NCBI GenBank assembly: GCA_021848145.1
Contig: JAJZMX010000005.1
Location: 25,528 to 89,527 of the forward strand
DNA length: 64,000 bases
Source of the DNA: a bacterium
Lineage (GTDB): Bacteria > Patescibacteriota > Saccharimonadia > Saccharimonadales > UBA4665
Direction: 5' to 3'
A model generated the notes under the pieces. The model saw only the letters and a program-made list of their open reading frames with translations, made no database searches and was not told the origin of the DNA. This document shows, piece after piece, positions 29,137 to 44,540 of this stretch (the stretch's first letter is position 1; every line of letters begins with the position of its first letter). A program made the translations under genes and the position numbers.

Positions 29137-29141
29137 GATGT

Positions 29142-29218
29142 TGGTACGCCCGAAGGGATTCGAACCCCCGACCTTTGGTACCGGAAACCAACGCTCTATC
29201 CAGCTGAGCTACGGGCGC
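29142..29218 (-). tRNA. tRNA-Arg (anticodon CCG), CCA encoded
   Basis: Acceptor GCGCCCG/CGGGCGT (G1-U72), anticodon arm TTGGT-TTCCGGT-ACCAA, T loop TTCGAAT. Confidence 0.9.
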
Positions 29219-29306
29219 ATATTTTAGTTGGCATAAACAAGTGTTGTTAAGTATATGTACATAAAGGCTTCATGTGCAACGTCGTTTTAGTTTTTTTTCT
29301 TCTGGC

Positions 29307-30605
29307 TTAAGCATTTCTCACAAGGTCGTCTACAGGTTCTGGGATTCCGTTTACAACCAGTTTCCCGCTTTGTTTTAACACTAACCTTCGCAAACGGTTG
29401 TCGTAAGAATGTGCAATTTCTTGTATACCATTATGCTCTTGTAGCATGTCTAGGACATGCATCCTGCTTCTATATGGCTTAGTTGCGTAATGCTTAAAAT
29501 GTTCAATGTTTACGATTCGGGCTTTCTTAACGGTGGGTGGTTTAATAAAAGCTTGGTGGTTATATATTAATACGCCATTATCAGATAGAAGGCTGCATAA
29601 TTTATCGTGCAATAAGCGCCTTTCCCAAGAAGGTACTTCTTGGGTTACGAAGTTCGCCATAATAATGTCAAAAGTACCCGAGAAACCTTCTTTCAGAAAA
29701 TAATAGTCTCTTTCGTCTAGTATATTTCCCTCAAAGAAAGAGTAGGGGCTATTTTCGTCATATCCTTCAGAACCGATATTCTTTTTGTCTAATAGGCTTT
29801 GTAAAGTGTTCATATAATTAACATCCTTCCTCTCACTTGGTCTTAATCCATTAAGAGAAAATCGTGTTATGGCTGTGTCATAGTGTTTTTTCTGATTATG
29901 ATAATAAGCGTATTGATCCATGCCCACTATCCTGGAAAATATTCTCTTCCTAGAGAGTATGCTATTAGCTTTGTCGGTTAAATCTTCTTTTTCTGGTTCA
30001 TCGTCAGTGACTTTTTCAAAACTCATTGGATACTCATCCTTATACAGTAACTGCAGGGATCCTAACCCCAGGCTACAGCCATAATCTAATCCTGTTGCGC
30101 CTTTAGGAAAACGCTCTGCTAAGAGTTGGCAAATTAGTTCATCAGTGTAGGATCTTTCTTTAGCTGGAGTAGGCGCATTACGAAAGAGTAAGTCTGAATA
30201 CAGCACCTCTGTTACTTGATCATCACTATTTAGAATTGAATCAGATAAAATTTTCATGGGTTCACCCCAATCATCTTCACTTATTAGATCAGGATAAGTA
30301 AAAGTTTTCCCCCTGGATTCGTAGTAAACAGAAAAAAAATCAATAAAAGAAGCTCTGAACAGGCTGGCAGCAGGCCCTACGTCCAGATGTCTTCTCTGTA
30401 ATACCCATTCTGACATCTCTTTGAGGAACTGATGTACATTATTATCTGAATTGAGAATGGCTTTAAACATAGCCGCTGTGGGTAGCTCAACGTTAGGGCC
30501 TCCCGAGGATTGAATTTCAAATTCATCTATTAGAGTGATGTAGGCTTCATTGATACTGGAAACTCCTAGATTTAGAAAATCACTGTTATCTTTCATAATT
30601 ATCAA
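29307..30605 (-). CDS. Hypothetical 432-aa protein with a split class I SAM-methyltransferase-like core
   Basis: Motif I-like GLDYGCSLGLGS and motif IV-like FDIIMANFV, separated by an acidic insertion. The N-terminal 170 aa are unknown. Confidence 0.35.
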   Translation of the reverse strand: MIIMKDNSDFLNLGVSSINEAYITLIDEFEIQSSGGPNVELPTAAMFKAILNSDNNVHQFLKEMSEWVLQRRHLDVGPAASLFRASFIDFFSVYYESRGKTFTYPDLISEDDWGEPMKILSDSILNSDDQVTEVLYSDLLFRNAPTPAKERSYTDELICQLLAERFPKGATGLDYGCSLGLGSLQLLYKDEYPMSFEKVTDDEPEKEDLTDKANSILSRKRIFSRIVGMDQYAYYHNQKKHYDTAITRFSLNGLRPSERKDVNYMNTLQSLLDKKNIGSEGYDENSPYSFFEGNILDERDYYFLKEGFSGTFDIIMANFVTQEVPSWERRLLHDKLCSLLSDNGVLIYNHQAFIKPPTVKKARIVNIEHFKHYATKPYRSRMHVLDMLQEHNGIQEIAHSYDNRLRRLVLKQSGKLVVNGIPEPVDDLVRNA

Positions 30606-30710
30606 GATATATTCATGCCATATTTATTATATATTTTAGAAAAAATACGTAAATTGCTTAAGTATAGTTTTATTGCTCCAACTATTAATTAAACGTTATA
30701 CAATTTAAAT

Positions 30711-31379
30711 ATGGTCCCAAATAAGCTAAGCAACATAATGAGAAGTCTAGGTAAGATAGAATTTTATAAGAAAGACGAAATCTATCACTCACAGCACTTT
30801 GCTAATAGAATGTTTATGCTCAAAAAAGGGTTTGTTAAGCGTTATCAGGTGACAAATGAAGAAAAGGTAATAGAGTTAATTTATGGACCGGGATATATAT
30901 TTCCCCTATCACAGCTGTATAAAGAACTTTTCGGAATCAACCAAAACGAAGAAAACTTTATATATGTCTACCAGGCAATGACTGACATAGAGGCTTATTC
31001 TTTAGACGATAAAATCATAATGGAGAAAATTGAAAAGAATCCTTTACTTTATATTGACCTATATTATGAGTCAGGTCTGCGCATAAAGTCTAATATTGAG
31101 CGTCTTGCAAGTAATTCATATAGAGACGACTATAAAAAAGTAGCACATCAGTTATTTTGTCTAGCTAGAGAGTTTGGCAAGAAAGCTGTGGTTAATAAGA
31201 AAGAACATATTAAGATTAACGTTCCTCTTAACGCAAAAGACATAGCCGAACAATTGAATATATCCGAAGAAATAGCCGCATCGGTTATTGATAATCTAAA
31301 CAAACGCAAACTCATTAAAACTTATAAGAATTTTATATACATATCGAGCTTGAATTTATTAAAAGACGTTTATATTTAA
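30711..31379 (+). CDS. Crp/Fnr-family transcriptional regulator
   Basis: N-terminal cNMP-binding-like beta-roll and C-terminal HTH (AKDIAEQLNISEEIAASVIDNLNKRKLI). Confidence 0.65.
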   Translation: MVPNKLSNIMRSLGKIEFYKKDEIYHSQHFANRMFMLKKGFVKRYQVTNEEKVIELIYGPGYIFPLSQLYKELFGINQNEENFIYVYQAMTDIEAYSLDDKIIMEKIEKNPLLYIDLYYESGLRIKSNIERLASNSYRDDYKKVAHQLFCLAREFGKKAVVNKKEHIKINVPLNAKDIAEQLNISEEIAASVIDNLNKRKLIKTYKNFIYISSLNLLKDVYI

Positions 31380-31609
31380 TTCTTGAAGCCGTCACTTAAT
31401 TATCGTACGCATCAACCTTAGACCTATTGACGTTAAGATACTTAAATATAGATTATTATCAAATTATGCTTAATGTTCTCTTGGACAACACTGCACTAGT
31501 TTTAATATTTCGGCAAGAGTCCATTAATTTTTAGCAACTAGCTTTCATTAATATTTCAACAAATGGTATATAATTACGAGGTACTTAACGGACAGCAACT
31601 AAAATTAAT

Positions 31610-32149
31610 ATGAATTCTATAATAATATTTTGTGCTCAGTACCTATTTTTACTGGTCATATTACTTGAGGTATTTGCAGTAATAAGATTGGGGAAGGACG
31701 TTGACCAAAAAGTAAAATTTCTTGTAGCTATAATTATTGCAGGAGTGATTGCTTTTATTCTTTCTAGAATTTCCAGCAAACTATACTATGACCCTAGACC
31801 ATTCGTTAGGAATCCTCATATAAAACCACTTTTCCCGCATATACCGGACAATGGTTTCCCTTCTGACCACGCTTTATTAACCGGAACACTTACCGCTATC
31901 ACGTACTTCTTTAGTCGTAAGTACGCAACTATTATGCTTATTCCAACCCTAATTATTGGCTGGGCTAGAGTGTACGCTAACGTCCATTCACCTATAGATA
32001 TAGCTGGCGGATGGGTGTTTGGTATTATTGGTTCTTTTGCGGCTTATTACTTTGTAAAGTGGTCACTTACAAAACCTTGGGGAAAGTCCCTAGAGAAGAA
32101 ATTAATTCAACTAGTTAAGTCTACGCCAATACTAAGTAAAGTCATGTAG
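31610..32149 (+). CDS. PAP2-family phosphatase (undecaprenyl-diphosphatase BcrC-like)
   Basis: The three PAP2 motifs: YYDPRPF, PSDHA and RVYANVHSPIDIAGG. Confidence 0.75.
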   Translation: MNSIIIFCAQYLFLLVILLEVFAVIRLGKDVDQKVKFLVAIIIAGVIAFILSRISSKLYYDPRPFVRNPHIKPLFPHIPDNGFPSDHALLTGTLTAITYFFSRKYATIMLIPTLIIGWARVYANVHSPIDIAGGWVFGIIGSFAAYYFVKWSLTKPWGKSLEKKLIQLVKSTPILSKVM

Positions 32150-32586
32150 CCGTTTGGGTTACTTGAAAATAACTAACCTAAAGTCGTTGGAACGGTAATG
32201 GTTTCCAAGAATTAATTGGAGTAAGATAATAGCCAAAGTCGTTTTCTCCTAGCCTTTTTAGGTTGTGTAGGTAGGTAAGTTCAATGTGCCTTGGGCCAAA
32301 TCTAGCTCATATTTTAATAGAGCAAATCCATCCTTGTAGCTAACAAGATCACTATTTTTTTGGGGCTAATACTTCAACTCCCGCTTTAGAGAATTATTCA
32401 TATGATAACTATATTTTCGGAAAATGCTTAGTGAAGTTACCATGTATTACAAGCGAAACTTACCCATATTCATAGTTAATGCAATTTTGCTCCATATATG
32501 AAATATGAAGAATAGTGTTAGAAGGTTTACTCTCTTTAAGCCTATTCAGTGGTAGAGTTTTCTTTGTTTATTGGGAGGATGGCAAA

Positions 32587-33081
32587 ATGAGCAGCAATAA
32601 AGATTCCCTAGGAGAGTATGCGGCCAATCGACACTTTGCTGAACAGCTGAAATACCTATATCCTATCGAAAGATTTAAGCATGCTTGCGACGCTATTTCT
32701 GAACTTGAATTTCAGTCATTAGTTAGGCCGCAAAATATAGAAATTACTGATACAATCATCGCTGAATTTACAAGACTAAATGACTTTGGCCCAATAGTTA
32801 GCGATAATCCAATTGCTGGGTTAGGGGTGGTTATTATATCCGAAGGAAAAAGATTTCCAACCGGTCGAATTGCTCAAAACGTAAAGTTTAGGTCTGATAC
32901 AAGTGGATATGAGGGCGCAATTTATTACAGTAAATCGGGCGACAGACTAGATGGAACTGCTCATCAAGTTAACTTCAGAAACCCTGAAGGACTAATGGAT
33001 ATTAAAATCCCCGACTTCAAGGCTGGTTTAGAGGCAGCTGTTAGAGCTTACGACAAACTAATTAGCGATTCTATTATATAG
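32587..33081 (+). CDS. Hypothetical protein
   Basis: ORF with a GGGAGG RBS before ATG 32587. No recognisable motif. Confidence 0.4.
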   Translation: MSSNKDSLGEYAANRHFAEQLKYLYPIERFKHACDAISELEFQSLVRPQNIEITDTIIAEFTRLNDFGPIVSDNPIAGLGVVIISEGKRFPTGRIAQNVKFRSDTSGYEGAIYYSKSGDRLDGTAHQVNFRNPEGLMDIKIPDFKAGLEAAVRAYDKLISDSII

Positions 33082-33167
33082 AATCTATTGTTCCGCCATG
33101 CAATTTCTAATTATCCGGTTCTACATGAAAATTAACTATTACCACAGATGCCTAACTTTTTTCAAAA

Positions 33168-33427
33168 GATTCGAATAGATTGAAGCTGTATTTTAGAAGT
33201 TCTTTAGACAAGGGTAGTTATTGTGCCAGGCTTGGCAGAGGTGATACCTCAAATGTCTCGTGCCACCACAGCAATTCACTCTTGAGACGGTTCCAAGACG
33301 AAACTGGAAGGTGTACCATCGAAACGTTTTTAACGATCACCTCTGTTACTGAAATTCTAAATAATTAGCGATCCTGACTGACTGACTGGATTTACTTCTT
33401 TAAATCGGTTCGAATCCTGTTAGGTCA
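33168..33427 (+). repeat. Repeat family copy 1: inverted short tail (33168-33212), 106-nt core (33213-33318) and long tail (33319-33427) ending in GGTTCGAATCCTGTTAGG
   Basis: Manual alignment to copies at 34224, 42556(-), 36953(-) and 37755(-). Confidence 0.8.
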
Positions 33428-33477
33428 ATCCCATAACTCATCCATGCTTACTAGTTATCTAATGTTATGATTACTAC

Positions 33478-34200
33478 ATGGATCTAAAAATTGTTGATGA
33501 TTTAAAAGTTCTGTTTGAAAAAGATTCGAAGGTCCATGCCATGTGGATTGCTGGATCTGTTGCAGAAGGCAACAATGATGAGCTATCCGACGTTGATTTA
33601 TGGCTGGATATAGACGACAACCAAGACCAGCAAGTACTAGATAAAGTTGAGGGGTTTTTAGCCACTAAAGGAACCATTGACGTCAATTTTGGAGAAGGTT
33701 TAACGCCGCCTTTTACTCATAAGGTTTATCATCTAGCCCAAATGGATCCACTTCATTTTATTGAAATTAATCTTCATTCTCACTCACATAAATTTGGCTT
33801 ATTCGATAGTCTGCGCAAAATAAAAGTATTGTTTGATAAAGACGGTTCAACCGATTTTGAATCTTTTGATGAAGCCAACTATAGCAAAATGCTGAATGAG
33901 CGTAAGCAATTCCTATTAGAAAAGATTGAGTTTGGTGAATTATCGGTCAGAAAAGAAATACAACGCAAACATTTCTTGGAAGCACTGCATAATTACCAGT
34001 TTTGGTTAGTCGAGCCTATAATTGAAGTCATTCGAATTAAACACACGCCATTAAAAATAACTTACGGCTTAAAACATGGCAGCAGGGATCTTCCTAATGA
34101 AGCGGTGGCTGCAATAGAGTCGTTATATATCATCAAATCGATCAGTGACTTGAATAATAAGATCGGTGAGGTGAATGAGCTCGTTAAGCAATATAGGTAG
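33478..34200 (+). CDS. Nucleotidyltransferase (aminoglycoside/lincosamide ANT-like, Pol-beta superfamily)
   Basis: GSVAEGNNDELSDVDLWLD matches the GS-x(n)-DxD NTase motif. A roughly 130-aa helical C-terminal domain resembles KNTase-type enzymes. Confidence 0.65.
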   Translation: MDLKIVDDLKVLFEKDSKVHAMWIAGSVAEGNNDELSDVDLWLDIDDNQDQQVLDKVEGFLATKGTIDVNFGEGLTPPFTHKVYHLAQMDPLHFIEINLHSHSHKFGLFDSLRKIKVLFDKDGSTDFESFDEANYSKMLNERKQFLLEKIEFGELSVRKEIQRKHFLEALHNYQFWLVEPIIEVIRIKHTPLKITYGLKHGSRDLPNEAVAAIESLYIIKSISDLNNKIGEVNELVKQYR

Positions 34201-34208
34201 GTTACTCA

Positions 34209-34329
34209 GTTCTAATCCAGCACGGTAGTTACTGTGCTAGACTTGGCAGAGGTGATACCTCAAATGTTTCGTGCCAGCGCATCAGTTCACTATTGAGGCG
34301 GTTCCAAGCGGAGACAGGAAGGGGTACCA
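34209..34329 (+). repeat. Repeat family copy 2 (core 34224-34329), beginning 9 nt after the NTase stop
   Basis: 8 mismatches in 106 nt versus copy 3 by manual alignment. Confidence 0.85.
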
Positions 34330-34378
34330 AGCATAAGCTTTATAGTATTGCATAAGATCTTCTTGTTATTATTAACGA

Positions 34379-34651
34379 GTGCAGAATTATTTATCACTAG
34401 CTTTGCTAGCAACAGGGTTAGCGTCAGTTGTAGCCGCTTTACCACAACTAATACGCGTCCTAAAGCTAAAAACTTCTCGAGAATTAAGTATTTTTAGTTG
34501 GACTGTTTGGCTACTTTACCAGTGCGTATCAGTAGCATATTCCTTACACATACACGCTAAAGCATACGCTTTGATTAATGTGCTTTGGGTTTGTTTTTAT
34601 GCAAGCATGGTCGTTCTAATAATTAGGTATCGACGTTCCCAAAGACAATAG
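34379..34651 (+). CDS. SemiSWEET / PQ-loop 3-TM transporter
   Basis: 90 aa, 3 TM, PQ motif (VAALPQLIRVLK). GTG start. Confidence 0.6.
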   Translation: MQNYLSLALLATGLASVVAALPQLIRVLKLKTSRELSIFSWTVWLLYQCVSVAYSLHIHAKAYALINVLWVCFYASMVVLIIRYRRSQRQ

Positions 34652-35145
34652 TATTAAGGTTCTGACTTCTCGGACTAGGGCGTACCGCCACGATTTCACT
34701 TCCATTAACCCTACTTGTCACCAAGCAGAATTTAAATTTGCAAAAAGTTATAATTGTTATATGTCTAACAAACAATCTGTGCATATGCCAGTTTTTATAC
34801 TTTTTGCGATAGTTATATTAATCGGTTTAACGGTACTACTTTAGAAATATTTCGAATACTTATTATTTTGTCAGTCTGAAAACTCCGGGGCGTATAGTAT
34901 ATAAAACTTCCTCGCAGTGTAATCTGGGCGTAATTCATGTTCAGACCATAACAAGAGACGATGTTTATTTTTACTATGATAAATTCAGGTTAACGGCCGA
35001 TAACAAAACCGGTCGGCTAACCGACTTTACGACTGACGAAAAAATGCAAGTAACGACTATCGACAAGACCAAGAATATATCAAAAATCAGAGCATTAAAC
35101 TGACATAAAGGATCAGATTTTCACTGGTTTGCACAAAGAAAGTAG

Positions 35146-35175
35146 TTGACGTATTGGTATAACTTTCGTTATACT
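35146..35175 (+). promoter_or_regulatory. Candidate promoter TTGACG-18 nt-TATACT placed 7 nt before the antitoxin ATG (leaderless mRNA candidate)
   Basis: Hexamers at 35146-35151 and 35170-35175. There is no Shine-Dalgarno sequence between the -10 and ATG 35183. Confidence 0.4.
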
Positions 35176-35182
35176 TATTTAC

Positions 35183-35419
35183 ATGAAAACAGCAGTTTCT
35201 ATACCGGATAACGTATACGCTTCAGCTGAAAAACTTGCTAGACGCTTAGGCAAATCACGTAGTCAGCTTTATGCCCAAGCTTTAAGTAATTATTTATCTA
35301 AGCATCAAAAAGAAGGCATAACAACTAAATTGAACGAGATTTATCTTAATAGTGACTCAAGGGTTGATAAAGTACTTGCAAAACTGCAAGCCCAGTCCCT
35401 ATCAAAGGAAGATTGGTGA
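35183..35419 (+). CDS. RHH (CopG-type) antitoxin paired with MazF
   Basis: MKTAVSIPDNVYASAEKLARRLGKSRSQLYAQAL is an RHH motif. It overlaps the toxin start. Confidence 0.7.
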   Translation: MKTAVSIPDNVYASAEKLARRLGKSRSQLYAQALSNYLSKHQKEGITTKLNEIYLNSDSRVDKVLAKLQAQSLSKEDW

Positions 35420-35754
35420 AACGTGGTCAAATCTGGTGGGCAGAATTACCAGAACCAAGTGCTTCAGAGCCAGGGTTTAAACGACCAGTAATTATTGTCC
35501 AGGCGGATGAGTTCAATAATAGTCGCATTAGTACAGTAATAGTAGTGGCAATAACCTCTAATTTGAGGCTCGCTGATGCACCTGGTAATTTACACCTTCC
35601 AAAATCGAAAACTGGGTTAACAAAGGATTCAGTCGCTAATGTGTCTCAAGTACTTACCCTCGACAAGACTTTCTTAACGGAACAAATCGGACGGCTTGAT
35701 AGAGTAACTGTTCAGCAGCTAGATGAAGGCTTGCAACTAGTTCTTTCTCTATAG
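35413..35754 (+). CDS. mazF: MazF/PemK-family endoribonuclease toxin
   Basis: RGQIWWAEL...KRPVIIVQADEFN...VIVVAITSN is the PemK signature. Confidence 0.85.
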   Translation: MVKRGQIWWAELPEPSASEPGFKRPVIIVQADEFNNSRISTVIVVAITSNLRLADAPGNLHLPKSKTGLTKDSVANVSQVLTLDKTFLTEQIGRLDRVTVQQLDEGLQLVLSL

Positions 35755-35823
35755 AACCATGTGACCCAGTTCACGGAAAACCTATTGACAAACTTTATAA
35801 AGTTTTAATATATTTATAAAGTT

Positions 35824-36738
35824 ATGAATTACTCTAAACAACTAAGGGCTATATTAGATGCAAGTGGCTGGACGCAGGAAGAGCTTGCCAAACAATTAGG
35901 TGTATCGTTCGTAACTATAAACTCATGGATTAACGCTCGGGCTAAGCCTCGTAAGAGGGCGCTTGAATCTATACGTATTCTGTACTTTGATGTGCTGGGT
36001 GACAACAGTTTAGATGTAGGCTATCTTGAAGAGCTGAAAGAGAAAATTAAACTTCTTAGCATTAAGCTTTCTCAGATCACTGAAAACAAGGAAGTTTTCG
36101 ATAAACTCGTACTCCATCTGACCTATCATACAAATGTTATAGAGGGCAGTACCATGACGCTTGATGACACAAGAGAAGTTCTTTTCGAAAACAGAGTCCT
36201 AACTAACAGAACGCAAATTGAGCAGGCCGAGGCCAGGAACCACAAAGCCGCACTAGTTTGGCTACTGGGTGCGTTACAAAGCAAGAGTTTTGTAATTGAT
36301 GATAGTTTAATAAAAGGGCTACACCTCAGGCTCATGAATGGCATTATAGAAAATGCAGGACTGTACAGAAACCATTCAGTTCGCATAATGGGTGCGCATG
36401 TTACTGTTGCCGATCATATAAAAGTGCCTGAATTAGTGCATGAGCTGCTTACGAAAATTAATGCTAAGGCTAAAGAAGAAGTTACAGAAAAATTATCTGA
36501 AACTCATGCTATTTTTGAGAAGATACATCCATTTAGTGATGGTAACGGAAGAGTGGGCCGATTACTAATGCTTGCCCAAGCCTTACAAATAGGTATTGTG
36601 CCACCTTTGGTGCTGAAAGAGAGAAGGCAGGCATACTATAAGTATTTAGGGCTTGCACAGACTCAAGATAACGTGATGCCTTTACAGCTTTTTATAGCTG
36701 AATCTATAGTTGCAGCCAATGATCTACTATTTAAGTAG
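35824..36738 (+). CDS. HTH(XRE)-Fic fusion protein (AMPylase family)
   Basis: N-terminal HTH (WTQEELAKQLGVSFVTINSWINARAKP) and the Fic motif HPFSDGNGRVGR. Confidence 0.85.
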   Translation: MNYSKQLRAILDASGWTQEELAKQLGVSFVTINSWINARAKPRKRALESIRILYFDVLGDNSLDVGYLEELKEKIKLLSIKLSQITENKEVFDKLVLHLTYHTNVIEGSTMTLDDTREVLFENRVLTNRTQIEQAEARNHKAALVWLLGALQSKSFVIDDSLIKGLHLRLMNGIIENAGLYRNHSVRIMGAHVTVADHIKVPELVHELLTKINAKAKEEVTEKLSETHAIFEKIHPFSDGNGRVGRLLMLAQALQIGIVPPLVLKERRQAYYKYLGLAQTQDNVMPLQLFIAESIVAANDLLFK

Positions 36739-36747
36739 CAAAAGGCG

Positions 36748-36953
36748 CTAACAGGATTCGAACCAGTTTTAAGAAGTAAATACTCTCAGCTAGGCAGGGT
36801 TGTTAATTATTTAGAACTTCAGAAACAGAGGCGATCAATGAAAAAGTTTTGATGGTACCCCCTACCTGATGTGTTCAGAAAGAAGTATTACCAAGTAATA
36901 CTTGGATTTGCTAAGGATATTGAGTTTGCAAAGTCTTATCTAGGCACTACGCC
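36748..36953 (-). repeat. Repeat family member R_a: divergent-centre core (36853-36953) plus long tail (36748-36852)
   Basis: The ends match the 106-nt core family. The tail aligns with the copy-1 tail and contains CAGGATTCGAACC and TGGTACCCCCT, both identical to tRNA-Arg(TCG) segments. Confidence 0.7.
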
Positions 36954-36961
36954 AGTTTTAT

Positions 36962-37243
36962 CTACTTGCTAGCTGTTGCAAGTTCTTCGTCAACTTTTTC
37001 GCTTAGATATACTTTCATTAACGACTGATATGGTACACCTTTCTCATTGGCTAAAGCTTTAATATGTGCAAGGAGTGGGCCAGGAATCCGCATGGATATA
37101 GATTCAGAGGTCAATTTCAAGTTGGGAAAGACTACTTCCTCAGCTTTAGACCAATCAATATATTCCCCAGAGTCGTGGGTATCCCAAAATTCAACTTCTT
37201 CCTCCTCATTTCTAAAATCAGGTATTTTTTTAAGTTTTTTCAT
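36962..37243 (-). CDS. brnA: BrnA-type antitoxin
   Basis: EEVEFWDTHDSGEYIDW and a C-terminal RHH-like segment (ISMRIPGPLLAHIKALANEKGVPYQSLMKVYL). Confidence 0.75.
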   Translation of the reverse strand: MKKLKKIPDFRNEEEEVEFWDTHDSGEYIDWSKAEEVVFPNLKLTSESISMRIPGPLLAHIKALANEKGVPYQSLMKVYLSEKVDEELATASK

Positions 37244-37526
37244 AATTGCTCCTCTCTATTCTCTTCATATCTCTTACAGATATAACCCTTATTTTTTCGT
37301 CTCTTATCGTAAACGCTACGAATAATAATCTATTGCTCTTTGTTTTACCTAGGCCAGTGAATCTTTGCTCAGACGATGAAGAATGTTTGACGTCTTGTTT
37401 AATATAGAAGGGTTTTCGTACAAATATTTCTTCAGCTTCTTGAGTGGTCACATTGTGTTTAATAAGGTTCTTGTGAATATTACCCGTATCCCATTGAAAA
37501 GCAATTGGTTTAGGCAATACCCGCAT
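37230..37526 (-). CDS. brnT: BrnT-type (DUF497) toxin
   Basis: FQWDTGNIHKNLIKHNVTTQEAEEIF and RVISVRDM signatures. The toxin precedes the antitoxin, as in brnTA. Confidence 0.8.
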   Translation of the reverse strand: MRVLPKPIAFQWDTGNIHKNLIKHNVTTQEAEEIFVRKPFYIKQDVKHSSSSEQRFTGLGKTKSNRLLFVAFTIRDEKIRVISVRDMKRIERSNYEKT

Positions 37527-37586
37527 CTTTATAGTATATTCTTAGTATATACATATGTCAATAGTCTGTTTTAAATAATTGATAAA

Positions 37587-37755
37587 CCCCTAGAGGATTC
37601 GAACAGATTGAAGCTGTAATTCGGGAAGACTTTCAACTGAGGTAGTTGTTCAAATGGTACCCCCTACCTGGTATGTTCAGAAAGAATTATTACCAAGTGA
37701 TGATTGAAATAGCCAAAGAAATTGTGTTGATAGACAGTTTATTGTTCCAGCTTTA
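37587..37755 (-). repeat. Repeat family member R_b: short tail (37587-37654) plus divergent-centre core (about 37655-37755)
   Basis: The short tail aligns with 42383-42450. TGGTACCCCCT lies at 37655-37665. The CCAAG-loop hairpin is shared with R_a. Confidence 0.65.
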
Positions 37756-37845
37756 AGTACTATATTATAAAAACATCTAATTGCCATACCATACTTTCTC
37801 AACTTTTTATTAGGTGATGCCAATCTGTTGTATTATTAGTGTATT

Positions 37846-38391
37846 ATGTCATTAATATTCATTACTGGTATATCTGGTTCGGGAAAATCAGCAGTCTGGC
37901 AAGAACTAAAGAGCAGAGGCTATGAAGCATATGATGTTGATGAAGATGGCTTAGCAAAATGGCATAATAATGACACTGGCTATGTTCACCCTAAATCATC
38001 AGTAAAAGCTCATCAGCGTACCCCAGAGTTTTTAGCAAGTCATTCATGGAAAGTTCCTCGTAATGAAGTAGAGGAATTAGCTAAGCATGCTGTAGATAAG
38101 AATGTCTATTTGTGTGGTGTAGTTGCTAATGAAAACGAGCTTTGGGATTTATTCGGTAAAGTAATTGCTCTAACAGTTGATGAAGATACACTTAGACATC
38201 GCATTAAATCTCGTACTAATAATGACTTTGGTAAATCTGAACACGAGTTCGAGCAAATTATTGGCAGGCAAGAAGACGCAAAAGACTCATATAAAAAGTT
38301 TGGGCATATAACAATAGATGCAACTAGACCATTAGACGAGGTGGTAGATGATGTCGTCGCAATAGCTAGTTCAGGAATTAAAAATGGTTAG
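37846..38391 (+). CDS. P-loop kinase (AAA_18/33, shikimate/adenylate-kinase-like)
   Basis: Walker A GISGSGKS. 181 aa. Confidence 0.6.
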   Translation: MSLIFITGISGSGKSAVWQELKSRGYEAYDVDEDGLAKWHNNDTGYVHPKSSVKAHQRTPEFLASHSWKVPRNEVEELAKHAVDKNVYLCGVVANENELWDLFGKVIALTVDEDTLRHRIKSRTNNDFGKSEHEFEQIIGRQEDAKDSYKKFGHITIDATRPLDEVVDDVVAIASSGIKNG

Positions 38392-39379
38392 TAAATATTT
38401 TGAGCGCCTAGGCTACAAGGATGATAGCGAACTTTTAATCGCAGAAATTAGTGATGGGTATGATTTAGGGGCTGTTCAGGAAGCGTCAGTTTTAACAGTT
38501 GGTTTTGAAGACTGTAATGTCAGAGTTAGAACTGACACTGGACAATTTGTTATTAAAGCATTTGGTAAGTTTCGAGATGACGCAGATATTGATAGATATG
38601 TCGATGTTATGCAAGCAGTTACTGAAGGCGGTGTTCATCACCCTGCCTTACAGGATACTAGAGATGGAGGTGTGCTTTTCAAACACTCAAGTGGTGTTTC
38701 GGCAGTAGCGATGGATTTCATTGAAGGTCATACCTACTTTGATACTAAGACTGTACCGACTGATGAGGAATTAGAACTAGTAGCCGCTGAAGCTGTTAAG
38801 ATTCATGCTCTAGATATAGACCCGCCATACGTCTTTGATTCATGGGCTATCCCACATATCCATAAAATGCATGAAGCTGCCCTACCATTTCTAGATGAAG
38901 GTGGTAGAAAAATAGCAGACGCTGCACTTGCACGTTATGACGCTATTGACCTTAGTAAACTAGAAATGCGGTTTATCCATGGCGATATTATTTCAACTAA
39001 TACTTTACTGGGTAGTGATGGTAAAGTATGGATTCTAGATTTCGCTGTATCTAATGTATATCCAAAGATACAGGAGCTGGCAGTAATTGCTAGTAGCCTA
39101 CTTGCTGGAAGTGAATTTGTGCCACTTGGTCATAGAGTAGAGCAAGTTAAGAAAGCATATCTTGTTGTTGGCGGTAAGCTATCAGATTATGAGCAACACG
39201 CCTTAATGGACTATGCTATTGCAGCAGCAGCTATGGAGTTTATGGGTGGCCATAAAGCTAAGTTTATTGACAAAGAAGAGGTTGAAGAATGTGATTATTG
39301 GATTGATGTGGGCAGGAAAGCACTCCAAGAATCATTAGGGCTATTTGACCATAAACAAGGTGAAGGCAAGAAAAAATGA
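38384..39379 (+). CDS. Aminoglycoside phosphotransferase (APH)/homoserine-kinase-II family kinase
   Basis: Catalytic loop FIHGDIISTNTLL and Mg-binding WILDFA. Confidence 0.75.
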   Translation: MVSKYFERLGYKDDSELLIAEISDGYDLGAVQEASVLTVGFEDCNVRVRTDTGQFVIKAFGKFRDDADIDRYVDVMQAVTEGGVHHPALQDTRDGGVLFKHSSGVSAVAMDFIEGHTYFDTKTVPTDEELELVAAEAVKIHALDIDPPYVFDSWAIPHIHKMHEAALPFLDEGGRKIADAALARYDAIDLSKLEMRFIHGDIISTNTLLGSDGKVWILDFAVSNVYPKIQELAVIASSLLAGSEFVPLGHRVEQVKKAYLVVGGKLSDYEQHALMDYAIAAAAMEFMGGHKAKFIDKEEVEECDYWIDVGRKALQESLGLFDHKQGEGKKK

Positions 39380-40005
39380 TAATCTTCATCTTCGGCGACA
39401 GCATTACAGAAGGTCTTTGGGATAGTAAAGGTGGTTGGGCTGATAGAATTAAGGCATTCGTACAAAGCGAAGAGGTAAAATCTGGAATTAAGAATTATCA
39501 TGAGGTGTATAACTTAGGTGTAGATGGCAATACTACTAAGCAAATAATTGACAGATTTGAATCTGAAACAAAAGCTAGACTATGGCCTGATGAAGAATAT
39601 GCATTTATTTTCGCTACAGGCACTAATGATACTCTGCATAGAAACAATCAAGAGTTTGAATCAACCCCAGAACGTTATAAATCTGAGCTAAATCAATTAA
39701 TAGGACTTGCTAGAATGTACTCATCAAAGGTCATGTTCGTAGACATGCTGCCAGTTGACGAAAACCTAACTAACCCAATTAAATCTTCATCTAGTGGTAA
39801 ATGTTATACCAATGAAAGAATCAGAAGCTTTAATGAGGTTCTTCATGAGGTATGCGATAACCAATCATTAACTTACATAAAAGTCAGCGAAAAGTATCTT
39901 GAGCAAGACTACAAAACGTTACTCGCAGATGGCATACACCCAAATGACCAGGGTCATGAAGTAATTTTTGATTTAGTTGTTGAATATATAAGGGGGCTGC
40001 TATGA
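39376..40005 (+). CDS. SGNH/GDSL hydrolase
   Basis: Block I FGDSITEG, block III GTND, block V DGIHPN. Confidence 0.8.
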   Translation: MIIFIFGDSITEGLWDSKGGWADRIKAFVQSEEVKSGIKNYHEVYNLGVDGNTTKQIIDRFESETKARLWPDEEYAFIFATGTNDTLHRNNQEFESTPERYKSELNQLIGLARMYSSKVMFVDMLPVDENLTNPIKSSSSGKCYTNERIRSFNEVLHEVCDNQSLTYIKVSEKYLEQDYKTLLADGIHPNDQGHEVIFDLVVEYIRGLL

Positions 40006-40901
40006 GCAAAACTATAGAAAAGAAAATCCTTCCTGAATACTTTGAAAAGGTAGCTAGTGGCGAAAAGACCTATGAGCTTAGACTTGCGGACTGGGATTGT
40101 CGGCCTGGCGATATACTAGTATTAAATGAAATTGACCCTAAAACGAGAGAGCTTACTGGTCGTTCATTAAAGCGTAAAGTTGGTTATGTTGGCAAAACTA
40201 AAGATATAGATTTCTTTTCAACAAAAGAGATAGATGAATATGGCTATCAGATAATATCGCTACTTCACGATTTGCCAGAAGTTCGTATTAAGGACGCATG
40301 GTTAGTTAGAGAAAATGTTTCAACCCATTTGCATGAGTTGTGGGGTAAAGGCAAAGAACTTGCAGACGATGAATGGATGGAGAAAAGAGTCAAAGACTAC
40401 CAGAAAGCCTGGAGGCCTTATCAACAGAAAATATTGCAAGGCATGACAGAAACAATAGGCTTATATTTTAGGCAGGACATAATTGATGTTTACATTGCTC
40501 CCTGGTTTAACGCATTTAGTGACCCTATGATAATTGGCGTAATGCGCGAACCAGATGAGTTTATAGACACTCTAACGCATGAGTTAATACATAGACTTCT
40601 TACTGATAACACAACAATCCCACACGAAACCAAGTTACTAGGTGAATGGCAAAAATTATTTGGTAAAAATCATTCATTTTCAACGCTGGTACATATTCCT
40701 GTTCATGCTATACATAAGTCAATTTATTTAGATGTGCTTGATGCTCCTAATAGACTAAAAAGAGATATTAATGGAAATAAAAAGTTCAATGCTACTGATT
40801 ATGTTAAAGCCTGGGATTATGTTGAAAAACACGACTATAAAAAGATTATTGATAAGCTAAAGGATTCATACCTAACCTTGCATCGGAGTGTCAATGAGTA
40901 A
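40002..40901 (+). CDS. ASCH/DUF3850-like N-terminal domain fused to an HExxH putative metallohydrolase domain
   Basis: EKTYELRLADWDCRPGDILVLNE is DUF3850-like. HELIHRL is an HExxH motif. Confidence 0.45.
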   Translation: MSKTIEKKILPEYFEKVASGEKTYELRLADWDCRPGDILVLNEIDPKTRELTGRSLKRKVGYVGKTKDIDFFSTKEIDEYGYQIISLLHDLPEVRIKDAWLVRENVSTHLHELWGKGKELADDEWMEKRVKDYQKAWRPYQQKILQGMTETIGLYFRQDIIDVYIAPWFNAFSDPMIIGVMREPDEFIDTLTHELIHRLLTDNTTIPHETKLLGEWQKLFGKNHSFSTLVHIPVHAIHKSIYLDVLDAPNRLKRDINGNKKFNATDYVKAWDYVEKHDYKKIIDKLKDSYLTLHRSVNE

Positions 40902-41412
40902 CTTCGTATTAGCAATAACAGGCCCTGCAGGCTCTGGTAAAAGTACAGTTGCTAGTAGGCTAGCAAAGCGGATAGAAAAATGCGTGAATATAGACGCTGA
41001 TTATGTAAAGCATATGGTGGCCAATCCTTTTATTTATGATGATTCTCCTGAAGGCATTGTTCAGTGGGAGCTACTTGGTGACAATATAGGACTGATTGCA
41101 AAAAACTTTAACAGAAGTAGCTATAACGTAATAATTAATGGCTATATCAACGAACCCGCCTGGCGCAAAATCTTAGAGCATATTGAGCTAACTCACAAAG
41201 TATTGCTATTACCTGAACTAGAGGAAGTCATAAAACGTGATTCACTAAGACAAGAAAGTGATGCTATGGGCGAGGACGCTATAAGGGTACACCATGACTA
41301 TTTCTCAAATAGTCATTTTTTTGATGATTTCACTAACATTGATTCAACTGCACATACAGACCAGGAAACAGTTGATGATATCAAAAAGAACGTATTAAAG
41401 AATGGTCTATAA
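40888..41412 (+). CDS. P-loop kinase (AAA_33 / chloramphenicol-phosphotransferase-like)
   Basis: Walker A GPAGSGKST followed by the NIDADY segment. Confidence 0.55.
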   Translation: MSMSNFVLAITGPAGSGKSTVASRLAKRIEKCVNIDADYVKHMVANPFIYDDSPEGIVQWELLGDNIGLIAKNFNRSSYNVIINGYINEPAWRKILEHIELTHKVLLLPELEEVIKRDSLRQESDAMGEDAIRVHHDYFSNSHFFDDFTNIDSTAHTDQETVDDIKKNVLKNGL

Positions 41413-41414
41413 AT

Positions 41415-41807
41415 ATGGACTACGAAGGAGTAATAATTGAAGAGAGCCTAAAAGATAAAGGTGTACTAAAACTGGTTGAGGTAGTTACCACTAAAGTTGA
41501 ACCAGTAACCAAAGAACATAAAACTCCCTGGCTAAAACAATGGACATTGCACACTGTTAAGATATCTGAAAGTAATATAGATAAAGTCGCTGAGGTTATA
41601 AGTAAGTCACTTGAACCTAACTACTGGTATGCTGACTTTAAGAATAGCAAGCATCACTACATAATTTTTCCAAACAAAGTATTCAAAGTAGACAGAAGTA
41701 AGCCAGAGCAATATAAACAAGTTAGTAGTTATGGACTAGGTTTAGGTATCCCAGATTACCAACTAGACTTTTCGCCAGTAATAAGACAATGGGAAAGGCC
41801 AGAATAA
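41415..41807 (+). CDS. Hypothetical protein
   Basis: ORF tightly packed within the operon. No motif recognised. Confidence 0.4.
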   Translation: MDYEGVIIEESLKDKGVLKLVEVVTTKVEPVTKEHKTPWLKQWTLHTVKISESNIDKVAEVISKSLEPNYWYADFKNSKHHYIIFPNKVFKVDRSKPEQYKQVSSYGLGLGIPDYQLDFSPVIRQWERPE

Positions 41808-41813
41808 TAGTAA

Positions 41814-42389
41814 ATGGCATTTGACGAAAATAGCTTAAAGCAAGTTATTGATAAAATCAAATCAATAAATAAGCCAATAAAACCCGTAATCATTGGTATT
41901 GAAGGTTTTGGTGGGTCTGGTAAGTCTACTCTAGCTAAGATGCTGAAAGAGAAACTTAATAATTGTGAAGTTATTAGTATTGACGCATTTATTATTAAAG
42001 AAAATGCCCGACAAGCTAAACCACAGGAGGAAACCTTTGACATTACAAGACTAGAGGAACAGGTATTAAAGCAAGCTAGCGGCGATAAGCAAATCAGCTA
42101 TCAAGTTCTTGATTGGGCAAGTAATACTTTAGGTAAAAATATAGATTTGCCGAAAATGGATTACCTAATCATAGAAGGGATAACTTCATTTCACCCAAAC
42201 ATAGAACATTACTATGACTTTAAGATTTGGGTTGATGTACCCATTGAGGTAGCAAAAAGGCGAGGACAATTAAGAGATAAAGGCAACGAAAACGAGGGAA
42301 TGTGGGACAAGTGGGCAGCTTCTGATTTAGCTTATAAAGAAAAATTTCACCCCGATAAAAAAGCTGATTTTAATATCGATAACCCCTAG
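41814..42389 (+). CDS. Uridine-kinase/phosphoribulokinase-family P-loop kinase
   Basis: GIEGFGGSGKSTLAK and LIIEGI motifs. Confidence 0.6.
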   Translation: MAFDENSLKQVIDKIKSINKPIKPVIIGIEGFGGSGKSTLAKMLKEKLNNCEVISIDAFIIKENARQAKPQEETFDITRLEEQVLKQASGDKQISYQVLDWASNTLGKNIDLPKMDYLIIEGITSFHPNIEHYYDFKIWVDVPIEVAKRRGQLRDKGNENEGMWDKWAASDLAYKEKFHPDKKADFNIDNP

Positions 42390-42571
42390 AGGATTCGAAC
42401 AGATTGGAACTGTAGTTTTGGAGTACTTTCGACAGGGGTGATTGTGCCAATGGTACACCTTCCTGTCACCGCTTGGAACCGCCTCAAGAGCGAACTGCTG
42501 CGGTGGCACGAAACATTTGAAGTATCACCTCTGCCAAGTCTAGCACAATAACTACCGTGCTGTATTAGAAC
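42383..42571 (-). repeat. Repeat family copy 3: core (42451-42556), short tail (42383-42450) and 15-nt leader; starts 1-2 nt after the antitoxin stop
   Basis: Manual alignment. The core is enclosed by the inverted repeat ATTGTGC...GCACAAT. Confidence 0.85.
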
Positions 42572-42572
42572 C

Positions 42573-42836
42573 CTATCTGGCAGCGGCCTTATGTAAAACC
42601 GATGAAGCGTAAGTCTGATAGGGTATGCCTTCAGCTATAGCTTTAGCCTTAAGTCTATATAAATCCTGTTCAGATAACCGAATACTAATGTTTCTTGTTT
42701 TATTAAGGGTGGCTTTAGCGGCAGCCTTGGCTTTTGCGTGCTCTTCTTTGGGATTGTTGACCTGAACAAACTCTCCTCGATTGTAGGCATCGAGTAGTTC
42801 CCGTTCATCTGGATCGAGGTCGTAATCTATCATCAT
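42573..42836 (-). CDS. BrnA/CopG-like antitoxin
   Basis: C-terminal RHH-like ISIRLSEQDLYRLKAKAIAEGIPYQTYASSVLH. 4-nt overlap with the upstream toxin. Confidence 0.65.
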   Translation of the reverse strand: MMIDYDLDPDERELLDAYNRGEFVQVNNPKEEHAKAKAAAKATLNKTRNISIRLSEQDLYRLKAKAIAEGIPYQTYASSVLHKAAAR

Positions 42837-43114
42837 AGCTTTTCTCCTTTCAAATACTTTTTGGTGGCTTTTCTACTTGGGATTATAGTTTTTAGGAAGA
42901 TCTTTTCCTCGTCTTCTACATAAGGAACGAGGTATGAATAATCATCTATCCTTACAATATATACTTTTTGATGAGCGTATTTCTTTATATTGGGGTGGTT
43001 GATTGTGTCAAGTAGCCTATCATCATTGATGGCTGCCACAACGTCCTCAAATGAAACCTTCCGTTCACTTTTTAAAATCAAGTTTTTAGACTCATTCCAA
43101 TGAAAAGGTTTCAC
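42833..43114 (-). CDS. BrnT-like (DUF497) toxin
   Basis: FHWNESKNLILKSERKVSFEDVVAAI and FLKTIIPSRKATKKY resemble the BrnT N- and C-terminal signatures. Confidence 0.6.
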   Translation of the reverse strand: MKPFHWNESKNLILKSERKVSFEDVVAAINDDRLLDTINHPNIKKYAHQKVYIVRIDDYSYLVPYVEDEEKIFLKTIIPSRKATKKYLKGEKL

Positions 43115-43143
43115 AAACCCATTATACTACAAAAGATACGTAA

Positions 43144-43220
43144 TGTAAATAATTGGTACCCCCTGCAGGATTCGAACCTACGACCTTCTGTTCCGAAGAC
43201 AGACGCTCTAATCCGCTGAG
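43144..43220 (-). tRNA. tRNA-Arg (anticodon TCG), CCA encoded
   Basis: Acceptor GCCCCCT/AGGGGGT, anticodon arm TCTGT-CTTCGGA-ACAGA, T arm GTAGG-TTCGAAT-CCTGC. Confidence 0.9.
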
Positions 43221-43277
43221 CTAAGGGGGCAAGACTAACGTATACTATCTTATCAGCGGAGGAGATTTTAACAAGCT

Positions 43278-44540
43278 TTGGACTATTTTAATAGGATAAA
43301 CACTGAACTCAATAAGGTAGCATTTCCAAATTCGTTAATACCCAACGACAAGGACGTGCTTAGTCGGACAAGACAAATAATGGAGTTTCTTGGCAATCCC
43401 CAGAATAAATTAAAAATTATACATATTGCTGGTACTAGCGGTAAAACGTCAACAGCTTATTACATGAGTGCTTTACTCACTCAAACAGGATGCACGGTTG
43501 GGCTCACAGTGTCGCCATATGTAGATGCTATTACAGAAAGATTGCAGGTAAATAATATACCACTCGATCCAAAAGATTTTTATGACCTACTTGTAAAATT
43601 TCTTGAACTTGTTAATTCAACAAGCGTTAAACTATCATATTTTGAGCTTCTTTATTGTTTTAGTTTTTGGGTATTTGCGGGTAAAGGAGTTGACTATGCG
43701 GTTGTTGAAACTGGCATGGGAGGACTCTATGATGCGACAAACATAGCCGATAGGCCAGATAAGGTTTGCCTTATTACAGACATAGGTCTAGATCATACAT
43801 CGAGGCTCGGCAACAGAATAGAAGAAATAGCAAAGCATAAAGCCGGCATAATACACCATCTAAACCCAGTATTTACTTTCAACCAACCTGAACCAGCACT
43901 TTCTGTAATCAAGGAACAATGCTTACGCCGCGACAGTAAATTAACAATTGTCAATTCTTATACTAGCCACGACCAATTATCAGGCTTGCCTTCTTTTCAG
44001 TCACGAAATTGGACGTTGGCGCACGAGGCTTACTTATATATATGTGAAAGGGACAATCTACGAGTAATTAACAACACAAGACTAATTAAAACAAAATTAA
44101 CTTACATACCTTGCCGCATGGAAATCGTCAATTATGGGGATAAGGAAATAATTATGGATGGTGCCCATAACGGCCAAAAGATAAAAGCACTAGTTAATTC
44201 ATATACGGCTATATACCCGAATACTAAAGCTATTTTTCTATTGGCTCTCAAAGCAGGTAAGAATATAAAAGAAATATCAAGCGCCATAAAGCCTGTTGCG
44301 ACTACTGTTATAGTAACCACTTTTAAGTCAAACGAAAATCTACCCTCTAAAGCCGTCGAGCCTAGTGAAATAGTAAAAGCACTCCAAAATATCGGCATAA
44401 CTTCCGTAGCAATAACGGATCAGGATAGAGCCTTAAATTATGCAATATCTGGGGAGGATAAAGTATTAATTATATGTGGATCGTTTTATTTACTTAGCCA
44501 ACTCAGATCGACGCATAGTTGGCTGAAGCAGAAAAGCTAA
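43278..44540 (+). CDS. folC: Folylpolyglutamate synthase/dihydrofolate synthase (Mur-ligase family)
   Basis: HIAGTSGKTSTAYY P-loop, ETGMGG and DGAHN motifs. TTG start. Confidence 0.8.
   Translation: MDYFNRINTELNKVAFPNSLIPNDKDVLSRTRQIMEFLGNPQNKLKIIHIAGTSGKTSTAYYMSALLTQTGCTVGLTVSPYVDAITERLQVNNIPLDPKDFYDLLVKFLELVNSTSVKLSYFELLYCFSFWVFAGKGVDYAVVETGMGGLYDATNIADRPDKVCLITDIGLDHTSRLGNRIEEIAKHKAGIIHHLNPVFTFNQPEPALSVIKEQCLRRDSKLTIVNSYTSHDQLSGLPSFQSRNWTLAHEAYLYICERDNLRVINNTRLIKTKLTYIPCRMEIVNYGDKEIIMDGAHNGQKIKALVNSYTAIYPNTKAIFLLALKAGKNIKEISSAIKPVATTVIVTTFKSNENLPSKAVEPSEIVKALQNIGITSVAITDQDRALNYAISGEDKVLIICGSFYLLSQLRSTHSWLKQKS

Follow-up and report, generated by a model that had tools for sequence, protein, structure and literature searches.

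The closest described systems to the locus studied here are genomic islands that are linked to tRNA genes and grow by tandem accretion, and the cassette arrays of integrons, including the clusters of attC sites lacking integron integrases (CALINs). Integron cassette arrays carry small genes and toxin-antitoxin (TA) pairs as cargo. We studied a run of seven open reading frames (ORFs), g1 to g7, in a stretch of 64,000 nucleotides from a Saccharimonadales genome (assembly GCA_021848145.1, contig JAJZMX010000005.1), hereafter the window. The source genome had 950,254 bases in five contigs with a GC content of about 40%, and the window corresponded to C2:25528-89527. An earlier note on this DNA, made from the letters alone, had described the run as a coupled operon of small-molecule kinases and hydrolases, perhaps a stacked resistance or detoxification locus. 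The comparisons presented here indicate instead that the seven genes are probably exchangeable, mosaic cargo of one slot in a cassette array at the 3' end of a tRNA-Arg(tcg) gene, and not a pathway.

The array resembled tRNA-linked islands in standing at a tRNA 3' end, in having partial copies of the tRNA 3' part as direct repeats between its segments, in a GC content below that of its flanks, in its TA and accessory cargo, and in its variation between close relatives. The features of a tRNA-anchored island were thus found in it: a site at the 3' end, direct repeats of the tRNA 3' part at the borders and an atypical composition. It differed from such islands in lacking an integrase in or beside it and in the size of its segments, which measured 0.7 to 4.8 kb and often held a single gene or one TA pair. 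In addition, all segments carried an A flank (see below) besides the short tRNA core, and cargo was swapped at exact start codons. With integron arrays and CALINs it shared a fixed leader followed by promoterless, co-directional, tightly packed small genes, as well as TA cassettes, boundary repeats and a content that varied between strains. Unlike integrons, it had no IntI, its repeats were pseudo-tRNA-like and not attC-like, several of its TA cassettes were on the opposite strand, and no repeat separated the seven genes, so that one "cassette" would hold up to seven ORFs. An integron in the strict sense was rejected for the absence of IntI and of attC-like folding of the border repeats. Within the literature on Saccharibacteria and Patescibacteria that was covered, which excluded subscription journals, neither this array nor any tRNA-anchored cassette array of the group was found to have been described.

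The island that holds the array extended from 29.2 to 43.2 kb with a GC content of 0.34-0.39, against 0.40-0.44 in its flanks, and was delimited by two tRNA-Arg genes (Table 1). It contained a Fic gene and five TA pairs, including ParDE, RHH-MazF and two BrnTA pairs; its earlier description as a mobile-looking island was borne out by the low GC, the tRNA-Arg gene at each end and this cargo. An Rfam scan of positions 28500-43500 gave the two tRNAs only. The seven genes, all on the plus strand at 37846-42389, sat exactly between a first copy of repeat A followed by repeat D and a leader, on the left, and a second copy of A on the right. Both A copies were direct repeats, 81% identical over 79 nt, and a partial copy was present at 33168-33222. 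Every A was followed by the first 9-11 bases of the tRNA 3' end, and what came next was D, B or the real tRNA. No repeats between the seven genes were found by the repeat search, and the repeat elements were confined to this island genome-wide, except for one copy of B on contig C3. The border repeats folded no better than shuffled sequences (z -0.1 to -2.2), with the exception of B (z -2.15).

Table 1 Positions of the seven genes, border repeats and neighbouring features in the window
Feature	Position	Strand	Description
g1	37846-38391	+	181 aa; P-loop kinase, AAA_18 family, 42.5 bits
g2	38384-39379	+	331 aa; APH-fold (protein-kinase-like) phosphotransferase, Pfam APH 46.9 bits
g3	39376-40005	+	209 aa; SGNH/GDSL esterase, Lipase_GDSL_2 79.3 bits
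g4	40002-40901	+	299 aa; DUF3850 59.6 bits plus C-terminal HExxH part without Pfam match
g5	40888-41412	+	174 aa; GTG start; P-loop kinase-like, AAA_28, AAA_18 and AAA_33 near cut-offs
g6	41415-41807	+	130 aa; no Pfam or NCBIfam family
g7	41814-42389	+	191 aa; PRK/uridine-kinase family, PRK 37.7 bits
Repeat A, copy 1	37585-37663	+	left border of the cassette; degenerate copy of the 3' two-thirds of tRNA-Arg
Repeat A, copy 2	42381-42459	+	right border of the cassette; overlaps the g7 stop codon
Repeat D, copy 1	36852-36926	+	starts with 11 bases of the tRNA-Arg(tcg) 3' end, read on the + strand
Repeat D, copy 2	37654-37728	+	83% identical to copy 1
Leader	up to 37845, after D copy 2 (D copy 2 and leader, 37654-37845)	+	conserved; ends at the first start codon
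Repeat B	33213-33319; 34209-34329; inverted copy 42451-42571	inverted copy -	inverted copy 93% complementary to 34209-34329
Repeat C	33310-33423; inverted copy 36748-36861	inverted copy -	82% complementary over 114 nt; holds a tRNA T-arm-like stretch
BrnA antitoxin and BrnT toxin	36962-37243 and 37230-37526	-	CopG_antitoxin 109 bits, BrnT_toxin 77 bits; between D and A
Second BrnA/BrnT-like pair	42573-42836 and 42833-43114	-	CopG_antitoxin 30.5 bits; BrnT_toxin 29.1 bits, under the cut-off of 34.5
tRNA-Arg(ccg)	29142-29218	-	left end of the island
tRNA-Arg(tcg)	43154-43230	-	right end of the island; 3' end faces the cassette array

In the explanation we favor, the borders of the slot would be fixed (A, D beginning with the tRNA 3'-terminal bases, and the leader on the left; the second A on the right), and the genes between them would be exchanged, gained or lost at exact gene boundaries, so that the same frame would hold different subsets of them in close relatives, or enzymes unrelated to them. 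Two loci of relatives showed such a frame. In L125 the order was ParE, D plus leader, g3 (87% identical in amino acids), a stand-alone DUF3850 gene, 358 nt, A and tRNA-Arg; its D plus leader (1332-1525) was 80% identical to 37652-37844 of the window, and the 358 nt ahead of A held no remnant of the stretch from the C-terminal part of g4 to g7. In L039 the order was D, HicAB on the opposite strand, the g6-g7 pair (79% and 77% identical), A and tRNA-Arg, with DNA 78% identical on through A; no leader was detected in L039, nor in L131 (see below). Contigs of four runs from four other studies were also compared with positions 36700-43300. The X5 (3717 nt) and X6 (7970 nt) contigs carried the leader with 12 differences in 190 bases, and the X9 contig covered the leader too. 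Immediately after the leader, 789 unrelated letters replaced 37845-40001 (g1-g3) in X5 and X6; the breaks lay at 37844, one base before the ATG of g1, and at 40002, exactly the ATG of g4, and from there 40002-42450 (g4-g7 and the second A) followed with 131 differences in 2449 bases. In the X5, X6 and X9 contigs position 42450 was joined directly to the tRNA at 43154, skipping 703 nt; the segment 42451-43153, which holds B and the second BrnTA-like pair, is therefore an insertion polymorphism.

A scan with an A-derived pattern, which covered species representatives, returned seven loci in six metagenome-assembled genomes (MAGs), two of them L125 and L039 again. One of the five new loci ended at the left just before A, and the other four had differing cargo. 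L131 presented an NT5C 5'-nucleotidase gene between D and A, and L130 a PNPOx gene after a leader-like stretch, part of which was 81% identical to the leader. L127 contained a Peptidase_S51 gene in two pieces, MazEF and ParDE. In L128 four A+D junctions separated BrnTA, a gene without assignment, HicAB with a truncated g7-like P-loop fragment, a Ser_hydrolase gene and a further gene without assignment; this BrnTA was homologous to the window pair at 36962-37526. In L126, a tRNA-Arg(ccg)-like gene directly abutted A and had a Mur ligase gene next to it; a cupin gene and an RHH-MazF pair lay on the side of A. Copies of D were present in L039, L125, L126, L128, L130 and L131, and A directly abutted a tRNA-Arg gene in L039, L125, L126, L130 and L131. 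Part of the right flank recurred as well, as a Mur ligase gene after the tRNA in L127 and an amylase gene about 1 kb beyond the tRNA in L131, both with counterparts in the window. Altogether, the first gene after the shared leader was of four kinds: g1, g3, the 789-nt replacement and PNPOx.

Some further observations concern these repeats and arrays. The L130 contig (2965 nt), titled Acidimicrobiales bacterium MAG 2, has B, D, leader, A and a tRNA-Arg(tcg) 96% identical, and may be misbinned. The extra copy of B at C3:113567-113687 (83% identical) is about 550 nt from a tRNA-Arg-like gene (C3:114242-114318) and may mark a second, smaller cassette site. Within the island, a Polbeta-type nucleotidyltransferase gene (33478-34200) forms a single-gene unit between the two direct copies of B, and a 62-aa "ORF" at 33180-33368 lies inside repeats and is probably no gene. 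Two other Saccharimonadales MAGs carry arrays of 8-9 small enzymes, with no A or D repeats in the parts compared: L116 (128-5704) has co-directional, overlapping genes for a DUF3850-zincin fusion, SDR, NUDIX, His_Phos_1, Peptidase_S51, APH and Mrr, and L037 (1075-5864) has a similar array with Ser_hydrolase, g6, a g5-like gene and two NUDIX genes.

The array did not recur as a conserved module in relatives. Homologues of g1, g3, g4, g5 and g7 were rare in 60 related genomes, counted with the source genome left out, at E <= 1e-10 (E <= 1e-3 for g4). They were present in 11 genomes for g1, 12 for g3 (one of them the unpublished G019), one for g5 and five for g7 (one with stop codons); the eight genomes with g4 homologues comprised three with the C-terminal domain only, two with DUF3850 only and three with weak matches. 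No other gene of the run was found beside the g4 homologues within the flanks compared. Of 300 genomes in the order, 11 had a homologue of g6; the 12 genomes belonging to the same family had none. Two genes of the array coincided in ten relatives, on different contigs in nine of these; in the tenth, G043, the SGNH gene was 1.6 kb from a weak 30-residue DUF3850 match. The closest homologue of g2 in species-representative genomes (L014, 83% identical) had as neighbors genes for a 2-hydroxyacid dehydrogenase, PNPOx, an alpha/beta hydrolase and a protein without assignment, adjoining a Phd/PIN pair.

The surroundings of g6 gave the same picture. Any other gene similar to those of the run was detected within 8 kb (E <= 1e-5) in five of 79 g6 loci, and a close and adjacent partner in two: a g5-like gene in L037 (63% identical) and g7 in L039. 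The 65 loci with a callable g6 ORF had 125 neighbor ORFs, of which 116 were scanned; those left out were both neighbors in L072, a duplicate of L071, both in L091, and five ORFs of 72-85 aa. The neighbors included four NUDIX genes, four small P-loop kinases, four serine or alpha/beta hydrolases, two GNAT genes, five TA parts, three archaeal RadA genes and many ORFs without a family. Homologues of the run were thus dispersed in relatives beside different genes, the very outcome that the earlier note had named as speaking against its proposal, and the idea of a single module or pathway found no support.

In the window itself, the run proved to have seven genes and not the eight that had been announced: BrnT/BrnA pairs on the opposite strand flank it on both sides, so that no eighth co-directional gene adjoins it. 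The start/stop overlaps of 8, 4, 4 and 14 nt and the gaps of 2 and 6 nt given before were exact. Pfam and NCBIfam searches also confirmed the order of families: P-loop, APH, SGNH, DUF3850/ASCH-HExxH, P-loop, a 130-aa protein without assignment and PRK/uridine kinase. The four kinases belonged to two folds (three P-loop and one APH-fold) where three had been claimed. Gaps of 10 nt or less were found in 39% of the 651 same-strand neighbor pairs of the genome, according to crude ORF calls, and four runs of at least seven genes packed in this way were present, so the tight packing of the array is in itself not unusual for this genome. All seven ORFs were intact, with catalytic motifs in place, and the ratios of nonsynonymous to synonymous substitution rates (dN/dS) relative to homologues in other contexts were 0.06 for g2, 0.10 for g3, 0.11 for g6 and 0.09 for g7. 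As judged from these sequences, every gene encodes an intact enzyme that stands alone and is kept by purifying selection. The array would be read as one transcript from the leader, which presumably carries a promoter; the spacing of the genes and the shared leader suggest that it is probably transcribed as a single unit. A scan for consensus promoters and terminators found sites no more commonly than in shuffled sequences, and none in the leader.

The gene products did not point to antibiotic resistance. The P-loop protein g1 has the Walker A motif GISGSGKS, and a sequence search of the PDB with it returned P-loop stubs only; a paralogue, 30% identical, was found on contig C3. This AAA_18 paralogue (C3:31910-32386) is beside a Fic-like fragment (C3:33132-33398), which echoes the Fic gene situated about 1.1 kb upstream of g1 in the window. 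The product of g2 presented the catalytic loop HGDxxxxN (as HGDIISTN), a DFA motif and a Pfam APH score twice the cut-off (46.9 vs 23.2 bits). The g3 product had all four SGNH blocks (GDS at residues 7-9, the G in NLGVDG, GTND and DGIHPN) and a Pfam score of 79.3 bits against a cut-off of 32.9, and belongs to the SGNH/GDSL hydrolases. The Walker A motif of g5 is GPAGSGKST, and its closest solved structure was the uncharacterised BH3686 (2bdt, E 3.7e-12). A locus stacking an APH kinase, Gar- or CPT-like P-loop kinases, an esterase and a nearby ANT-like nucleotidyltransferase for antibiotic modification could be read from the membership of g2 in the Pfam APH family, from the best NCBIfam match of g5, the Gar/GrdA gentamicin-resistance ATP-binding protein (NF038208, E 3.2e-7), from a weak chloramphenicol phosphotransferase (CPT, PF07931) match of g7, and from the Polbeta-superfamily nucleotidyltransferase in the neighboring cassette. 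We consider this reading very improbable. The Gar/GrdA match reached 30.2 bits against a curated cut-off of 170 and the CPT match 18.6 against 22, and CPT was not even among the matches of g5, which had been called chloramphenicol-phosphotransferase-like. For g2, homoserine kinase models gave the best NCBIfam matches (46 bits vs cut-offs of 256-271), followed by CotI and Bud32, and no APH, MPH or related resistance model was listed at E <= 0.01; its relatives are labelled "phosphotransferase" or "Ser/Thr protein kinase RdoA (MazF antagonist)" by their sources, and among the 120 listed, eight carry a fused LMWPc phosphatase domain. The upstream gene taken for ANT-like barely passed the general Polbeta model (27.6 vs 26.9 bits), its best NCBIfam match was the MntA antitoxin (20.6 vs 60 bits), and it matched no ANT or Lnu model. 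No NCBIfam resistance model was reached by any gene of the supposed stacked locus.

Phage defence, the other role that had been suggested, fared no better. An anti-phage system that depletes or modifies nucleotides would agree with the position of the array among TA modules and a Fic gene, the latter matching the PADLOC candidate PDC-S04, with a weak match of g7 to PADLOC VakA (E 5.3e-8), and with the restriction-modification genes that comparable variable islands of relatives also carry. Nevertheless, PADLOC yielded generic P-loop matches for g1, g2, g5 and g7, nothing for g3, g4 and g6, and no system component beyond such similarity in any of the seven proteins; the array lacks the sensors, nucleases and other effectors that characterise known systems, and its genes circulate singly. 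This alternative thus appears extremely improbable.

The g4 protein joins two domains. Its residues 1-90 belong to the ASCH/DUF3850 family according to the Pfam score (59.6 vs a cut-off of 22.9 bits), the PUA-like beta-barrel fold and the octapeptide GxKxxExR, present as GEKTYELR. In a structure model with a predicted local distance difference test score (pLDDT) of 87.7, these residues superposed on the DUF3850 structure 3iuw with a VIA Z of 10.5 and a root-mean-square deviation of 2.2 A over 78 residues (Foldseek TM 0.81, target-normalised), and on YqfB (9kyf) with Z 6.4. In a preprint, 19 tested ASCH proteins are reported to strip N4-acetylcytidine (ac4C) from tRNA, the Lys and Glu of the octapeptide being essential (bioRxiv 10.64898/2026.02.27.708502); DUF3850-type members are not mentioned there. 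A 2025 preprint counts DUF3850 among the PUA-like domains and notes its fusion to ParB-CTPase folds in phages. Compared with the YqfB-type and GKER-type ASCH amidohydrolases, which are ac4C erasers, g4 shares the fold and the G-x-K-x-x-E-x-R motif and differs in its fusion to a zincin-like domain of about 210 residues without a Pfam family; by fold and motif its ASCH part may be amidohydrolase-like.

The second domain of g4 (residues 90-296) superposed in the model on the catalytic domains of M1 aminopeptidases and LTA4H (5fwq, 3cia, 1z1w and 8sw0; Z 9.9-10.3 over about 160 residues), and on thermolysin with Z 7.4. Residues 90-297 thus carry the HExxH motif on a thermolysin-like catalytic fold, as in the M1/LTA4H gluzincins, but identity to these was only 9-12%, and g4 lacks the N- and C-terminal domains that M1 enzymes possess. 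The third zinc ligand of gluzincins is a Glu some 18-25 residues past HExxH. In an alignment of 39 sequences the motif (H193, E194, H197) was invariant and D202, N203 and H231 were conserved candidate ligands after it, but no Glu downstream of it was conserved, and the third ligand of the M1 type was not found. No peptidase family was assigned to this domain by the Pfam or NCBIfam scans. We found 380 relatives of the zincin-like family, which has no Pfam model, with fused (~300 aa) and split (~210 aa) forms both common. The stretches HExxH-RLLTDN and HIPVHA are nearly invariant in the domain.

The 130-aa g6 protein belongs to a large family: 3145 proteins at E <= 1e-3 in a set clustered at 90% identity, and, with clustering at 50% identity, 1059 clusters at E <= 1e-3 and 515 at E <= 1e-10. 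Its members, as titled in the records, came from Saccharibacteria, many other phyla of the Candidate Phyla Radiation (CPR) and DPANN archaea (Woesearchaeota, Nanoarchaeota, Micrarchaeota and Aenigmatarchaeota), and were typically 55-70% identical to g6. Ten alignment columns were invariant in 50 sequences, including E10, S11, W43, W71, Y72 and P113. An AlphaFold2 model (pLDDT 87.7) had no Foldseek match at E <= 0.001, and its best VIA match (Z 5.0) was ferredoxin-like over the first ~80 residues only, so no fold was assigned and no new fold is claimed. The PDB sequence search gave chance matches only (E ~0.8) and the ESM Atlas search unnamed clusters only. Thirty long proteins of the family, chosen by length, contained NUDIX (three), DUF5680 (three), ASCH or DUF3850 (two), a weak zinc-ribbon (one), a cupin, glyoxalase, GNAT, DUF3800 or MazF domain (one each) or nothing else (16), and one locus had a g6-ACT_7 fusion. 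The fusions, some of which may be gene-calling artefacts, hint that g6 has a ligand-related role within the same set of small enzymes.

The g7 protein carries a Walker A motif, exceeded the Pfam PRK cut-off (37.7 vs 22 bits) and aligned over most of its length with uridine kinase and nicotinamide riboside kinase (NRK). Its best structural match was the uncharacterised 1rz3, and its closest characterised relatives were uridine kinase (E 2.1e-9), nicotinamide riboside kinase 1 (E 1.6e-7) and uridine-cytidine kinase. It differed from the uridine kinases in scoring far under the udk equivalog cut-offs (42.1 vs 220.3 bits for TIGR00235 and 42.7 vs 180 for PRK05480). No other gene of the genome matched the PRK family, which turned up in just six of 40 relatives, one of them G019.

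These families bear on the third alternative, that at least g4-g7 form a coherent salvage route for modified ribonucleosides. In such a route the ASCH domain would strip N4-acyl groups from cytidine, the zincin or SGNH protein would remove other decorations, g7 would phosphorylate the freed nucleoside, g5 or g1 would add further phosphates, and g6 would be a ligand-binding or accessory protein; we regard the route, steps included, as unlikely. The kinship and rarity of g7 are consistent with it, as are the octapeptide of g4 with the two essential residues, the g4-g7 block kept in a second population, the g6 domains fused to ASCH/DUF3850 or NUDIX, and the often nucleotide-directed other cargo of this hot spot and of comparable arrays (NT5C, NUDIX, HD_3 and His_Phos_1). 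On the other hand, the expected partner kinases were adjacent in two of 79 g6 loci and none of 10 g4 loci, g7 is far from the udk equivalogs, the DUF3850 type is not among the proteins named in the ac4C preprint, and nearly all genomes of the same genus lack g1, g3, g4, g5 and g7 altogether. Of the nucleoside or nucleotide role that had been proposed earlier, the likeness of g7 to uridine kinase and NRK and the ASCH motif of g4 make it plausible for these two proteins, and the single pathway did not hold. Under the exchangeable-cargo explanation, the products would be auxiliary enzymes for the salvage or clean-up of small host-derived metabolites, nucleosides and nucleotides among them: a Udk/NRK-like kinase, two further P-loop kinases, an APH-fold kinase, an SGNH esterase and a fusion of an ASCH amidohydrolase-like domain with a zincin hydrolase. 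Family membership makes such an auxiliary role the most plausible one.

Several observations weigh against regarding the seven genes as independent cargo. The sub-block g4-g5-g6-g7 was kept in the contigs of X5 and X6, where it was about 95% identical, g6-g7 in L039, g3 followed by DUF3850 in L125, and g6 followed by a g5-like gene in L037; moreover, long g6-family proteins were fused to ASCH/DUF3850 (2/30) and NUDIX (3/30). These persisting sub-blocks and fusions could stem from genuine functional links, in which case some of the genes may work jointly, and of the functional themes nucleoside salvage, although doubtful, would best fit such a partial link. The nested pattern expected from accretion would also result if a longer ancestral operon had eroded to different extents in different lineages. 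Since most of the relatives are fragmented MAGs, finding two genes on separate contigs says less than a measured distance would. No recombinase was found among 32 ORFs flanking the array, and the gene calls were crude longest-ORF calls.

We judge that exchange of cargo at a tRNA-anchored slot remains the probable explanation when these points are set beside the breaks at start codons and the different genes in the same frame. A bolder extension of it is that the tRNA-Arg locus serves as a platform for capturing and expressing genes in the manner of an integron, but with no integrase encoded there, and that its promoter-bearing leader and A/core/D borders would let promoterless genes and TA pairs be inserted, excised and swapped. 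Recombination would then be site-specific, at the tRNA 3'-terminal core, and would act in trans, perhaps through one of the two tyrosine recombinases. The genome's only two genes of this kind (PF00589) were at C3:175721-176248 and C1:101037-101555, both outside the island. We offer this extension tentatively.

Giving up the pathway idea prevents a false "resistance island" or "defence system" label from being attached to a CPR genome. The g6 family, shared by CPR bacteria and DPANN archaea, and the zincin-like domain fused to DUF3850 are uncharacterised and deserve an assay or a structure. The locus provides a population-level example of how a symbiont with a 0.95-Mb genome varies its auxiliary enzymes through a tRNA-anchored slot whose cargo is replaced gene by gene. 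If the exchange proves site-specific, CPR bacteria would turn out to have a cassette platform of a new kind, and if the platform exists as proposed, ultra-small symbionts would have access to a shared, shuffled pool of salvage and clean-up enzymes.

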